From positions 5,807 to 69,806 of the forward strand of contig SUTY01000001.1 of assembly GCA_015152455.1 (NCBI GenBank): a DNA stretch of 64,000 nt, written 5' to 3'. A program made the translations under genes and the position numbers. Below are positions 13,399 through 57,210 of the stretch, piece after piece. The stretch comes from Cyanobacteria bacterium SIG32. Its GTDB lineage: Bacteria; Cyanobacteriota; Vampirovibrionia; Gastranaerophilales; Gastranaerophilaceae. Position 1 is the first letter of the stretch, and each line of letters starts with the position of its first letter. The notes beneath the pieces were generated by a model, which made no database searches, was not told where the DNA came from, and saw nothing but the letters and a program-made list of their open reading frames with translations.

Positions 13399-13424
13399 AT
13401 CGGAGCCTAAAGATAGACTCCGAT
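13399..13424. repeat. hairpin ATCGGAG-N12-CTCCGAT, near-identical copy of the pilin-gene terminator hairpin at 42489-42514
   Basis: ATCGGAGCCTAAAGATAGACTCCGAT versus ATCGGAGCCTAAAAATAGACTCCGAT (25 of 26 identical). Confidence 0.8.
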
Positions 13425-13534
13425 AGATTTATATATAGACAGACATAGCCTAATCTGCACTACTGAAATACCCAATTTAACGTTTTAAAATTTATGTGGA
13501 TAATCTTCAGGAATTTTCCAATTATTCATTTGGA

Positions 13535-13648
13535 TTAGTTTAGTACAGTATGCACGTTCTTGCCCCATAGGTTCTGTATAATTGCCGTTAATGTCGGAAT
13601 AGTCATTGCTGCAACAACACCAATGATTGCGAGGGTAATCAATACCTC
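13535..13648 (-). pseudogene. remnant of a type IV pilin-like gene (N-terminal helix only, no start codon)
   Basis: Minus strand reads EVLITLAIIGVVAAMTIPTLTAIIQNLWGKNVHTVLN-stop, directly fused to the GTGAYCAAG leader module. TAG TGA lie in frame upstream. Nucleotide-level similarity to 43560-43600 is high. Confidence 0.6.
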
Positions 13649-13693
13649 TTGATCACTTGGTCACTAAAACCCTGATCACTTCTTATCTTACTA
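13648..13693 (-). repeat. pilin leader/operator module, copy A: TAAGAT -10-like box then GAAGTGATCAGGGTTTTAGTGACCAAGTGATCAAG
   Basis: Aligns almost base for base with 43853-43898 (copy B) and partially with 42311-42344 (copy C). Confidence 0.7.
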
Positions 13694-13768
13694 TTTTTTT
13701 TAATTGATTGCAATAGTTAACAATTTTAACGTATTTGCAATATCAAAATTCCCTGTTAACATAGTGTT

Positions 13769-42244: not shown

Positions 42245-42310
42245 AAGAATATTTTACTATAAAAAACTTTTGAAAAAAGGATTTGTTTATAAAAATTAAG
42301 AGGTTTTTGG

Positions 42311-42463
42311 CAGTGACCAAGAAATTAGTGATCAAGTGATCAAGAAAAATTCTCCTCCCCTTAGTGAATCAGTATGCGGTAGCTGAGGATAAGAAGTAAA
42401 ATCACCCGAATAATACTGTAGTCTGTTCCCTCCCCCCTTGAGGGGGAGGGTTAGGGAGAGGGG
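42311..42463 (+). repeat. pilin leader module, copy C (decayed, no gene): GTGACCAAG / GTGATCAAG / TGATCAAG repeats plus a GC-rich hairpin CCCTCCCCC-N-GGGGGAGGG and GGGAGAGGGG
   Basis: 42311-42344 CAGTGACCAAGAAATTAGTGATCAAGTGATCAAG; 42428-42463 CCCTCCCCCCTTGAGGGGGAGGGTTAGGGAGAGGGG. Homologous to elements of copy B but on the opposite strand. Confidence 0.65.
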
Positions 42464-42487
42464 TAAAAAATGTAAATAACAAAACAA

Positions 42488-42515
42488 AATCGGAGCCTAA
42501 AAATAGACTCCGATT
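42488..42515. terminator. terminator hairpin after the pilin-like gene (A-run / stem / T-run, usable on both strands)
   Basis: AAAATCGGAG-CCTAAAAATAGA-CTCCGATTTT. Confidence 0.6.
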
Positions 42516-42536
42516 TTATTATTATATCAAACCATT

Positions 42537-42559: not shown

Positions 42560-43702
42560 TTAATCACCTAAGCAAACCGCCCACCCACCGCTGCGGTTGC
42601 GGGCGTCGTAGTTCCATACCGTATCGTCGGAGTAGAAGTCGCGGACGTGAGCGCTGCTCTTAGCGGAAGAACCCTCCTCGCCTGACCACACCCAGAACGA
42701 AGGGCTAGGAAAGCCTAGAGAAGATCCTTTAGTTGGGTTGAATGCGATAGTATTACCATCATAGTTTGAGCCGTTGTCGGTTTTTTCTCCAACAATGTCA
42801 GTGTCATATAAATAATTTGCTATTGTAGCTAAATCTGACAACTGTGCCATTTTAGATGTACCACCACATGTTTCTGCTGCTTTTGCAAAGTAGTCGTCAC
42901 CTGGGTAACAGTAGTCAAGTCCGTATTTTTGCATATATGCTTGGTCTTCTGCGTCTGTTGATGTATATGTACTACTATTGCAAGCGTTCCATGTGTGTGC
43001 TGAATTAGCTTGGAATGGCATACCAAAACATGTACCGTCTATTTCAAACGCACAAGATGATCCACCAAGTGATTGTACGTTACCATTTGCTCTTAAATCT
43101 TTACCACTAACGTTTGGTGTTTTACCTGCAGATGTATCATATAGAATAGCTAAACAGTCACTACCAGTAATTGTATTTGAATAAGGATCTTGAGAACATT
43201 TTGGATTATATGCAATTAGTGCAGTAGTACCGTTTGCAAATTGTGTACCAATAATTTCTGTACCCCATTCATCTTGTCCAAAGTGTTTAGCTTTTTTAAC
43301 TTTTGTCATGTCAACAACTTCATTACCATAAGTTACTTCACTACTAAAACAATCTTGTAATTTATCGTTAGCACATATTTTAGTTGTTTTGAAGTTTTTA
43401 GCAAGTTCATTAACAAAACTTTCTGTAGTAGAGTGTCCTGCTAAAGTTGCATTAGCATTCATAACTCTCATGGCTTCAGTTAGTTTTCTTTCAAAAACAG
43501 TAGCTGCAGTACCCCAAGATTTTTCTTGGTAATTTGCAACAAGAGTTGGTATTGTCATTGCTGCAACAACACCGATAATTGCGAGGGTGATTAGAACCTC
43601 TGCCAAAGTAAAAGCAGATTTGCGATAGTTGGCACAATTGCCTACGTGCGTAGCACCCTCAGCTAACGTAAATGCTGCCCCCTCACCCTTACCCTCTCCC
43701 AT
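42560..43702 (-). CDS. type IV pilin-like protein with a long atypical leader and a C-terminal DUF1566 / Fibrobacter-paralogous-type (C-lectin-like) domain
   Basis: Prepilin signature KSA-FTLAEVLITLAIIGVVAAMTIPTL. The C-terminus FWVWSGEE...SGGWAVCLGD resembles YWSST...SVRCV-type domains. The coordinates use the in-frame ATG at 43702, which has no SD; the track ORF starts at TTG 43723. A better SD+ATG lies at 43805 but is 1 nt out of frame (see findings). Confidence 0.75.
   Translation of the reverse strand: MGEGKGEGAAFTLAEGATHVGNCANYRKSAFTLAEVLITLAIIGVVAAMTIPTLVANYQEKSWGTAATVFERKLTEAMRVMNANATLAGHSTTESFVNELAKNFKTTKICANDKLQDCFSSEVTYGNEVVDMTKVKKAKHFGQDEWGTEIIGTQFANGTTALIAYNPKCSQDPYSNTITGSDCLAILYDTSAGKTPNVSGKDLRANGNVQSLGGSSCAFEIDGTCFGMPFQANSAHTWNACNSSTYTSTDAEDQAYMQKYGLDYCYPGDDYFAKAAETCGGTSKMAQLSDLATIANYLYDTDIVGEKTDNGSNYDGNTIAFNPTKGSSLGFPSPSFWVWSGEEGSSAKSSAHVRDFYSDDTVWNYDARNRSGGWAVCLGD
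42575..42715 (-). other. G+C-rich, NNC-codon-rich 3' segment of the pilin-like CDS (DGR variable-region-like)
   Basis: 36/60 G+C in 42601-42660 versus 20/60 in 43201-43260. Codon runs are CAC GTC CGC GAC TTC TAC TCC GAC and AAC TAC GAC GCC CGC AAC CGC AGC, followed by GGTGGGTGGGCGG. Confidence 0.4.
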
Positions 43703-43754
43703 AGGGCGAGGGAATAATCCCAAAACGTCCGAAAGCCTTGCTAGGAGAGCGTTT

Positions 43755-43805
43755 CTACCCCCCCCCCAAGGTCTTAAAGCCAGTCATAGCTTCATTTTTT
43801 AACAT
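43755..43805 (-). CDS. short upstream ORF MLKNEAMTGFKTLGGG-stop with a strong SD, ending right after the G10 tract
   Basis: AGGAGATCGTAGT-ATG; ATG TTA AAA AAT GAA GCT ATG ACT GGC TTT AAG ACC TTG GGG GGG GGG TAG. It would fuse to the pilin frame with one G fewer. Confidence 0.45.
   Translation of the reverse strand: MLKNEAMTGFKTLGGG
43758..43767 (-). repeat. homopolymeric tract, G10 on the coding strand (C10 on plus)
   Basis: Counted directly: ...ctaCCCCCCCCCCaagg... Confidence 0.95.
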
Positions 43806-43852
43806 ACTACGATCTCCTATTCTGTTGGATCTTCCAACCTTAAAATATATTA

Positions 43853-43898
43853 CTTGATCACTTGGTCACTAAAACCTTGATCACTGCTTATCATACCA
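43853..43898 (-). promoter_or_regulatory. pilin leader/operator module, copy B: extended -10-like TGGTATGAT followed by AAGCAGTGATCAAGGTTTTAGTGACCAAGTGATCAAG
   Basis: Near-identical to copy A (13648-13693). Three direct GTGAYCAAG-type repeats, each containing a GATC/TGATCA core, begin about where the transcript would start. Confidence 0.55.
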
Positions 43899-43947
43899 TT
43901 TTTTTTATAGTTTTTAACGGAATTTACAAAACTTTATTTATTATTTG

Positions 43948-56504: not shown

Positions 56505-57155
56505 ATGACAAAAAGATTCGGTTTTACTTTGGCAGAAGTATTGATCACATTAGGTATCATTGGTGTAGTTGCTGCTATGACTATCCCAACATTGATTTCA
56601 AACACAAATGGTGCACAGTTCAAAACAGCTTACAAAAAAGCGTTATCAACTTTGAACCAAGCAGTTCTTATGAATGTTGCAATGGATGACACAGATTTTT
56701 CAGGTATGGTAGCTGCTGATGCAGATGCTGGTACTAAAATCGCAGATTTCTTAGGCGCTCGTTTACAAACAGCATCTGACATTACTGATCAATATGATAA
56801 TGAAACAGCTCCAGCTTTGACAACTTACAAACTTGATGGTGCTGATGTAACTGTTCCTCAGACAACTGCTATCGATACAGTTTATGCTTTTGCTGATGGT
56901 ACAGCATTTGGTTTCAGCGCTGCTGCAGCATCTTGTACTAAAACAGCTCCTTGCTACGGTTACATTGACGTAAACGGTACTGCTGGTCCTAACCAACAAA
57001 CAGAATGTGATGCTGGTACTGGTACAACTGGTGATGATGGTGTTGCTTGTGAAGTTTCAGCTTCTGCAGTTAAAGACATCTTCCCAGTATTATTCTATGG
57101 TCAAACTGTTGAACCAGCTTCAGACGCAGCTAAAGCAGTATTATTCGGTAAATAA
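56505..57155 (+). CDS. type IV pilin-like protein with a short canonical leader
   Basis: MTKRFG-FTLAEVLITLGIIGVVAAMTIPTL. ATG at 56505 after AAAGGTGAAAAG. Codon usage looks like that of a highly expressed gene. Confidence 0.8.
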   Translation: MTKRFGFTLAEVLITLGIIGVVAAMTIPTLISNTNGAQFKTAYKKALSTLNQAVLMNVAMDDTDFSGMVAADADAGTKIADFLGARLQTASDITDQYDNETAPALTTYKLDGADVTVPQTTAIDTVYAFADGTAFGFSAAAASCTKTAPCYGYIDVNGTAGPNQQTECDAGTGTTGDDGVACEVSASAVKDIFPVLFYGQTVEPASDAAKAVLFGK

Positions 57156-57175
57156 TCGATATAATAATACAGTTT

Positions 57176-57210
57176 TAAAAAAGACGGTCGTAAGGCCGTC
57201 TTTTTGTTTT
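57176..57210 (+). terminator. intrinsic terminator after the pilin gene
   Basis: AAAAAAGACGG-TCGTAAGG-CCGTCTTTTTGTTTT. Confidence 0.7.

Follow-up and report, generated by a model that had tools for sequence, protein, structure and literature searches.

A type IV pilin-like gene on the minus strand of a Melainabacteria MAG ("Cyanobacteria bacterium SIG32") raises the question of where its translation begins and whether the start is always connected to the gene. In the window (the whole 64-kb stretch analyzed here, 32% GC), a strong Shine-Dalgarno (SD) sequence and ATG open only a mini-ORF which ends directly after ten consecutive G, and the pilin-like ORF continues downstream in another frame. 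The homopolymer could be a length-dependent switch which decides whether the pilin is made, or the pilin could be translated from a start of its own.

A G10 tract separates a strong start from a pilin-like gene

The mini-ORF encodes MLKNEAMTGFKTL from ATG 43805, runs through the ten G (43767-43758), and stops at TAG (43757-43755). Direct reading of the sequence bore out the original prediction on the AGGAG, the ATG, the tract and the immediate TAG; the spacer between AGGAG and ATG, which it had given as seven nucleotides, is 8 nt (atcgtagt). The SD and ATG lie 38 nt 5' of the tract, and an equivalent SD precedes almost every tract-linked ATG among 80 related loci. Removal of one G (or addition of two) changes the reading to MLKNEAMTGFKTLGGGRNALLARLSDVLGLFPRPMGEGKGEGAAFTLAEGATHVGNCANYRKSA followed by FTLAEVLITL..., open into the ORF at 42560..43723; with G9 or G12, ATG 43805 thus reads into the type IV pilin-like gene with zero stops between, as had been claimed. 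The junction peptide spanning the tract in this ON reading is ...TLGGGRNALLAR.... G10 is the sole G/C run of 8 or more within the window, where 0.08 matches would be expected, and apart from it homopolymers reach 9 in just three places, one A9 and two T9. G/C homopolymers of about 8 or more are considered hypermutable in length in contingency loci; the tract in the window has 10, and the G/C runs of related loci have 9-13.

Upstream of the SD, the locus carries a small perfect hairpin, a promoter-like site and a conserved element with GTGATCA/GTGACCA boxes (Table 1). The hairpin was unchanged in five of the six aligned copies of the 5' cassette described below, L085 having one loop change, and the promoter-like region was also kept in L001, L085, L086, and L087. 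The box element has a 93% identical copy at 13648-13702 and an inverted, weaker copy at 42288-42350, 5' of dnaA (ATG 42244). The heptamers are not more numerous across the window than chance would give, and their clustering (42288-42350, 43847-43909, and also 13647-13680) is conspicuous; the clusters may be sites for a shared regulator or origin-related boxes.

Several other features of this region were considered and set aside. An invertible DNA segment was suggested by the inverted repeats at 42288-42350 and 43847-43909, but these arms are just 73% complementary and are copies of the box element also found upstream of dnaA. A predicted RNA fold of the 5' region paired the G run with a downstream CUCUCC with a z-score of only -2.86, and poly-C versions of the tract are unable to form the same pairing. 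Sequestration of the SD by a complementary TCTCCTA 3' of the tract was rejected because this pairing is unused in the predicted fold. An Rfam scan of the window gave nothing at the gathering threshold apart from tRNAs, and between 43500 and 44000 the sole match to a known structured RNA was at chance level (E=0.16).

Table 1. Features of the pilin locus in window coordinates; the arrow marks the predicted prepilin cleavage site
Feature	Position	Strand	Basis
Promoter-like site: TTAAAA, 16-nt spacer, TG-extended TATGAT	43890..43917	-	consensus scan; function putative
Conserved 5' element with GTGATCA/GTGACCA boxes, spanning the -10 region and transcript start	43853..43907	-	sequence copies
Small hairpin with a perfect stem, GTTGGA-AGA-TCCAAC (5' UTR, immediately 5' of the SD)	43824..43838	-	sequence and predicted fold
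Shine-Dalgarno AGGAG, 8 nt 5' of the ATG	43814..43818	-	direct sequence reading
ATG, candidate pilin start in the ON configuration; here opens just a 16-codon mini-ORF	43803..43805	-	
Mini-ORF MLKNEAMTGFKTLGGG and stop, as read in the G10 (OFF) state	43755..43805	-	sequence reading
G10 homopolymer (C10 on the + strand), candidate frame switch	43758..43767	-	sequence reading, homopolymer scan
Post-tract leader-coding stretch in the pilin frame: RNALLARLSDVLGL, FPRPMGEGKGEG, AAFTLAE-GATHVGNCANYRKSA	43613..43757	-	stop counts
Internal in-frame ATG without SD, NCBI start of P0001 (380 aa)	43700..43702	-	
Prepilin cleavage/methylation motif A↓FTLAE, then hydrophobic helix VLITLAIIGVVAAMTIPTL	43598..43612	-	Pfam, TIGR02532
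Mature pilin-like protein CDS including stop codon, ~350 aa	42560..43612	-	ORF list, homology
Terminator-like hairpin with T tail, 3' of the pilin gene	42483..42520	-	hairpin scan

The downstream gene encodes a prepilin with a very long predicted leader

The downstream ORF scored as a prepilin with both Pfam N_methyl (PF07963; E=3.6e-6, 26.8 bits against a cut-off of 21.2) and TIGR02532 (E=8.5e-5, 22.2 bits against a cut-off of 16.3), and the mature pilin-like protein had 4,212 homologues at E<=1e-3, the best ones from Melainabacteria. A prepilin N terminus consists of a leader whose last residue is G or A, followed by F or M, with Glu at +5, and then a hydrophobic helix some 20 residues long; in the window this part of the protein reads KSA↓FTLAEVLITLAIIGVVAAMTIPTL, and the A↓FTLAE motif is invariant in the family alignment. 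The leader itself is unusual. Prepilin leaders cleaved by prepilin peptidase are usually short (about 5-30 aa), and the one predicted for the ON state of the window has 68 aa, with >150 aa reached in relatives, which to our knowledge is far beyond any known prepilin leader. Between the tract and the cleavage site, we counted zero stops in the pilin frame versus four and three in the other two frames. Leaders of this family are mosaics of GC-rich, repeat-like modules, including FPRP-L/M-RERG/GEGKGEG, HPELVSGS, CHCEERSDVAI, and a FTLAE-GATHV...FTLAE duplication. The terminator-like hairpin that follows the gene has a nearly identical core after a truncated paralogue near 13420.

The window protein matches an SIG32 "type II secretion system protein" at 100%, annotated from ATG 43702. 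The original prediction held that this codon has no SD, which we confirmed; the in-frame TTG at 43723 has just a weak, distant AAGG 12 nt upstream. ATG 43702 is missing from the homologous module of L001 and is therefore not a conserved start, and several loci have no start codon of any kind between tract and FTLAE (two genes of L074, and L084, L007, L068, and L040). Pilin-like genes with such a tract appear to be mis-annotated; as their assemblies are out of frame, the starts have been assigned to codons inside the gene.

Copies of the 5' cassette occur in all three frame states

Nine sequences carry the 5' cassette of the window, six of which we aligned. Samples with such contigs are JGI 3300031555, 3300032167, and 3300024270 and ENA ERZ28593703 and ERZ27316016. 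Between the GTGATCA boxes and the FPRP module (~160 nt), the aligned copies differ in length only at the tract, along with a handful of substitutions. L001 and L002, from two JGI samples, carry TT+G9 and are in frame; their product, P0010, starts MLKSEAMTGFKTLGGGRNALLARLSDVLGLFPRP...AFTLAEV, which is the exact in-frame reading predicted from the window. L085 carries TTA+G8 and is also in frame (product P0130), so that P0010 and P0130 are ON-state proteins which start at the equivalent of ATG 43805 or in its frame. L086 (TTA+G9) shares the out-of-frame state of the window, L003 (TTA+G10) has the other out-of-frame state, and L087, L088, and L089 carry TT+G10, as in the window. All three frame states, two ON alleles included, are thus present among the cassette copies. 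Beyond the FPRP module, L001 diverges and lacks the 60-nt GATHV module; its gene body is 57% identical to that of the window at the protein level, and the DNA aligns over the first 260 nt only. Because L001 shares the cassette with so divergent a body, the cassette is common to divergent paralogues. The variation in tract length we observed is between paralogous or allelic cassette copies.

At the syntenic queA-SLT-pilin locus itself, we saw no length variation; the consensus was G10 in four of four assemblies, three of which are 100% identical to each other and may be related samples. L088 and L089, both JGI contigs, match the window at 100% identity across 4.2 and 2.8 kb, and L087, a 96%-identical strain, has the same queA-SLT neighborhood upstream and an intact pilin ORF. 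The expectation that tract length would differ across assemblies therefore held for the copies of the cassette and did not hold for this locus, where the four assemblies agreed in length. Since G10 recurs in identical JGI contigs and in a strain at 96% identity, it is a reproducible consensus at the locus and not an error, which makes unlikely the sequencing error that the original prediction had kept as its trivial alternative. As in contingency loci, the repeat number varies while the flanks stay the same, and both ON and OFF lengths occur in nature (ON in L001/L002, L085, L007, and L090; OFF in the window and most others).

The same layout recurs across Gastranaerophilales

A scan of species-representative genomes yielded 80 loci, most of them in MAGs of Gastranaerophilales. 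On the coding strand, 32 of the 89 pilin N termini (about a third) had a G/C run of 9-12 in the 400 nt upstream; over all runs, lengths were 9-13 and the distance from a strong SD and ATG was 12-40 nt, and in two instances further. With few exceptions, the G/C runs of at least 8 in the 323 kb of these loci fit one layout: a strong SD (usually AGGAG), an ATG, 8-13 unconserved and often basic codons, the run itself, then a leader of 7 to >150 codons, and FTLAEVLITL, with the upstream ORF almost always open to the tract. A metagenome scan with the window protein confirmed nothing, and one with the DNA pattern found one locus, L084. ON-state leaders in metagenome gene calls numbered 11/138 and 22/120.

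The stretch between tract and FTLAE is kept open in one frame. Over 6,849 nt, we counted 9 stops in the pilin frame compared with 204 and 166 in the other two and ~185 expected. The 9 were confined to two of 37 cases; in the other 35 the frame was open, and the open stretch beginning at the tract reached as much as 462 nt. We conclude from this stop-free frame that translation initiates at or before the tract. A start downstream of the tract, named in the original prediction as the finding that would count against it, is countered order-wide by the same result. In every case tested, a one-nucleotide change in the tract gave a complete prepilin of 258-425 aa. Homologous leaders in two species differ in frame, with L090 in frame at G11 and L049 out of frame at G10 (both BRZ SPAdes assemblies).

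The frame states were not evenly distributed. Order-wide (among L004-L083), 22 of 33 loci need one more G, five need one fewer, and six are ON (chi-square p=0.0003, calculated with relatedness ignored on loci which are not fully independent). The one-G-short skew spans more than ten unrelated flank families, and in two leader families neither tract length nor offset changes from species to species. Such a skew is not what simple, unbiased switching would give; under phase variation, it could arise from selection for OFF together with a greater stability of the shorter OFF length.

Parts of the DNA flanking the tracts are conserved, with genes differing in the frame in which they read it. A tract flank common to paralogues (the G run plus TAGAAACGCTCTCCTAG) encodes RNALL in some genes, VE(H/R)SPR in others, and some flank modules (e.g., GTCAAGCGGCACGCTTGC-G10 and G10-CAnTTTAAAGCTT) occur in both orientations (L063 versus L072 and L050; L078 versus L050). 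Flipped modules give poly-C on the coding strand, and an SD-ATG lies ~25-30 nt upstream either way. A CTCC motif follows most G tracts at 3-20 nt. These patterns suggest that the switch module has been exchanged as DNA, possibly with some nucleic-acid-level property in the tract flanks, and the tract with its flanks may be a portable module moving between pilin leaders.

A probable phase-variation switch and its alternatives

Taking these comparisons together, we think it likely that G10 is a slippage-prone phase-variation switch in the leader of a type IV pilin-like gene and that the window shows the OFF state, as the original prediction had it; the in-frame and out-of-frame alleles of the cassette and the open leader frame argue for this. 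The AGGAG and ATG at 43805 would be the true initiation site of the pilin. With 9 or 12 G, this ATG would be in frame with the 68-aa leader, presumably cut at A↓FTLAE by prepilin peptidase; with G10, translation would end at the TAG after the tract and the pilin would be absent or at trace level. Gain or loss of G by slipped-strand mispairing in replication would make ON and OFF heritable and reversible, with OFF being the state of the assembly and probably of the dominant population in the samples where it was found. The many pilin-like paralogues across the order that share this design would then form a family of independently switching contingency genes. The sequences show the anatomy, the differences in tract length between cassette copies, the ON alleles, and the constraint that holds the leader open; the switching itself, its rate, the processing of the leader, and the phenotype are our inference.

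A different use of the tract would be programmed recoding, either instead of or on top of a DNA switch, in which out-of-frame is the default and a low constitutive level of pilin is made through RNA polymerase slippage that adds or drops a G, or through ribosomes slipping on GGG codons. On long homopolymers, the shift associated with transcriptional slippage is a one-nucleotide insertion, and runs of 9-11 approximate the length of the RNA:DNA hybrid. The order-wide skew toward one G short in more than ten unrelated flank families would fit this reading, as would the constancy of tract length and offset within two leader families across species, and a TAG directly after the tract, as in the window, could favor +1 shifting. 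A fixed relation between the frames is what such a signal should preserve, and it is approached order-wide (22/33) but is absent from the cassette group of the window, where all three DNA frames occur; in-frame DNA alleles are frequent, and the window requires -1 nt and not +1. RNA polymerase slips less readily on G/C runs than on A/T runs, and G_GGG_GGG is an inefficient -1 heptamer. We regard recoding as unlikely, and give the same low standing to its fullest form, where genes held one nucleotide short would carry a conserved recoding signal, DNA length would tune the low level it sets, and the flanks would be the portable module.

The remaining explanations fare worse. If the tract were irrelevant, the pilin would start at ATG 43702 or TTG 43723 and the upstream SD-ATG would be an independent uORF, which agrees with the NCBI start of P0001 and with a mini-ORF that is complete in the G10 state. 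This is quite improbable given that 43702 has no SD and 43723 only its weak, distant AAGG, that the ATG is missing in L001 and several relatives have no start between tract and FTLAE, and that a downstream start has no need of a pilin frame open to the tract over as much as 462 nt. A decaying pseudogene, in which a hotspot frameshift killed one redundant pilin paralogue, would account for a locus that is out of frame in every assembly and for the truncated remnant with the same promoter element at ~13.6 kb, but we found no further lesions, the full-length ORF is kept and is also intact in the 96%-identical strain, and the architecture as well as the open leader frame has been conserved over an order, which means continuing selection on the in-frame product; we consider decay very unlikely. 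Least credible of all is that the tract length was miscalled, with the true length being G9 and the gene simply beginning at 43805. Sequencing errors are common in long G runs, and the majority of related assemblies lack one G for an in-frame reading, yet separate 100%-identical JGI assemblies and a diverged strain agree on G10, the same pipelines call differing lengths, in-frame ones included (the BRZ SPAdes pair L090 and L049), and the window would need an overcall where the general skew needs undercalls. We also rejected a poly-G artifact of two-color chemistry, as the tracts are internal and lie at a fixed distance from the SD-ATG, and in some genes the coding strand carries poly-C instead.

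Relation to known switches

As a phase-variation switch, the tract has a close parallel in Neisseria pilC, where a poly-G tract in the signal-peptide coding region changes length and turns the gene ON or OFF. In both, a G homopolymer sits a few codons past the start, in the N-terminal leader of a pilus-associated protein. The pilC product is a tip/assembly protein with a Sec signal, whereas here the predicted switch lies in a long, modular prepilin-type leader and the host is a gut member of the Melainabacteria. Campylobacter jejuni has poly-G contingency genes in an AT-rich genome, with runs of ~8-13 and modal lengths of 9-10. There, as here, intragenic G/C runs stand out against an AT-rich background and are concentrated in surface-structure genes; the C. 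jejuni tracts occupy varied positions, mainly within genes for glycosylation, capsule, and LOS, whereas ours are fixed at 8-13 codons after the start of pilin-like genes. For recoding, the comparable cases are Shigella mxiE (T9) and Thermus thermophilus dnaX (A9), which are sites of transcriptional slippage. As in these, a homopolymer of at least 9 joins two frames and the usual state is one nucleotide short (22/33 loci here), but mxiE and dnaX use A/T runs with fixed length and frame across strains, in contrast to G/C runs with three DNA frames in the cassette group.

Neisseria opa genes carry CTCTT repeats in the leader-coding region of ~11 paralogues (PMC3745409). The resemblance is to a surface multigene family with its own repeat in each leader and most copies OFF. 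Opa copies switch independently; the same would be expected here, and the shared 5' cassettes suggest exchange between paralogues. The opa repeat is a pentanucleotide in genes for outer-membrane adhesins, unlike the mononucleotide G/C run in genes for pilin-like proteins. In Streptococcus gallolyticus pil1, the repeat reportedly acts through the length of a separate leader peptide, and this peptide governs a transcription terminator. It is a short repeat in a leader ORF upstream of pilus genes and gives stochastic ON/OFF piliation (PMC3894217). Unlike pil1, the leader ORF of the window is fused in frame to the pilin, and there is no terminator after the tract. Gonococcal pgtA is a further poly-G case.

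In our literature search, we found no report of homopolymer switching in Melainabacteria pilins. The mechanism is a known one, and here a gene family would use it systematically in a lineage for which we found no account of it. Gastranaerophilales are widespread gut bacteria, known here from metagenome assemblies alone, whose surface biology is essentially unknown. If the switch is real, they would vary their surface filaments stochastically as mucosal pathogens do, with possible consequences for adhesion and for escape from phages or the immune system, and the tracts would serve as a marker for population heterogeneity in metagenomic reads. The very long translated leaders, built of GC-rich repeat modules, raise the question of what prepilin peptidases can process.

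Other pilin genes and repeat-like elements

SIG32 has further pilin genes. A truncated remnant lies at 13480-13702 on the minus strand, where the promoter/GTGATCA-box element is fused directly to ...EVLITLAIIGVVAAMTIPTL and a stop follows after ~40 codons; the entire SD-ATG-tract-leader cassette (~250 nt) is missing. On the plus strand, 56506-57200 holds a complete pilin-like gene with SD GGTGA, a short leader (MTKRFG↓FTLAEVLITLGIIG), and no homopolymer, which is presumably expressed without a switch. At least three more paralogues on other contigs (P0121, P0122, and P0123) are annotated from the same internal MGEGKGEG start; they probably have the cassette of the window and, like it, an out-of-frame tract in the assembly, and P0126 is a further SIG32 paralogue annotated from the same internal ATG or TTG.

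Some leader modules have features of their own. The GEGKGEG module (43678-43700, minus strand) is encoded by GGGAGAGGGTAAGGGTGAGGGGG, which has four runs of three or more G with 3-nt loops and is a textbook G-quadruplex motif on the coding strand, with the complementary CCCTCGCCC just before it; variants of the module (PLRERGKN, PLRERVRERGKN) are present in many pilin leaders. At 43613-43672 on the minus strand, a 60-nt, 20-codon in-frame module duplicates the cleavage motif in the form FTLAE-GATHV(G/A/D)xxxNxR(R/K)xA-FTLAE. The duplication is found at many loci (e.g., L008, L010, L036, L039, and L042), GATHV is strongly conserved across species, and its DNA holds the near-palindrome CTACGCACGTAG. 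The last ~60 codons of the gene (...FWVWSGEEGSS...RSGGWAVCLGD; 42560-42750, minus strand) have 53-61% GC compared with 32% for the genome, and the family alignment shows conservation of this GC-rich C-terminal domain. A GC-rich hairpin, CCCTCCCCCTCAAGGGGGGAGGG, lies at 42440-42475 on the minus strand, between the pilin terminator and the region upstream of dnaA, and is a repeat-like element of the kind seen in the leader modules.
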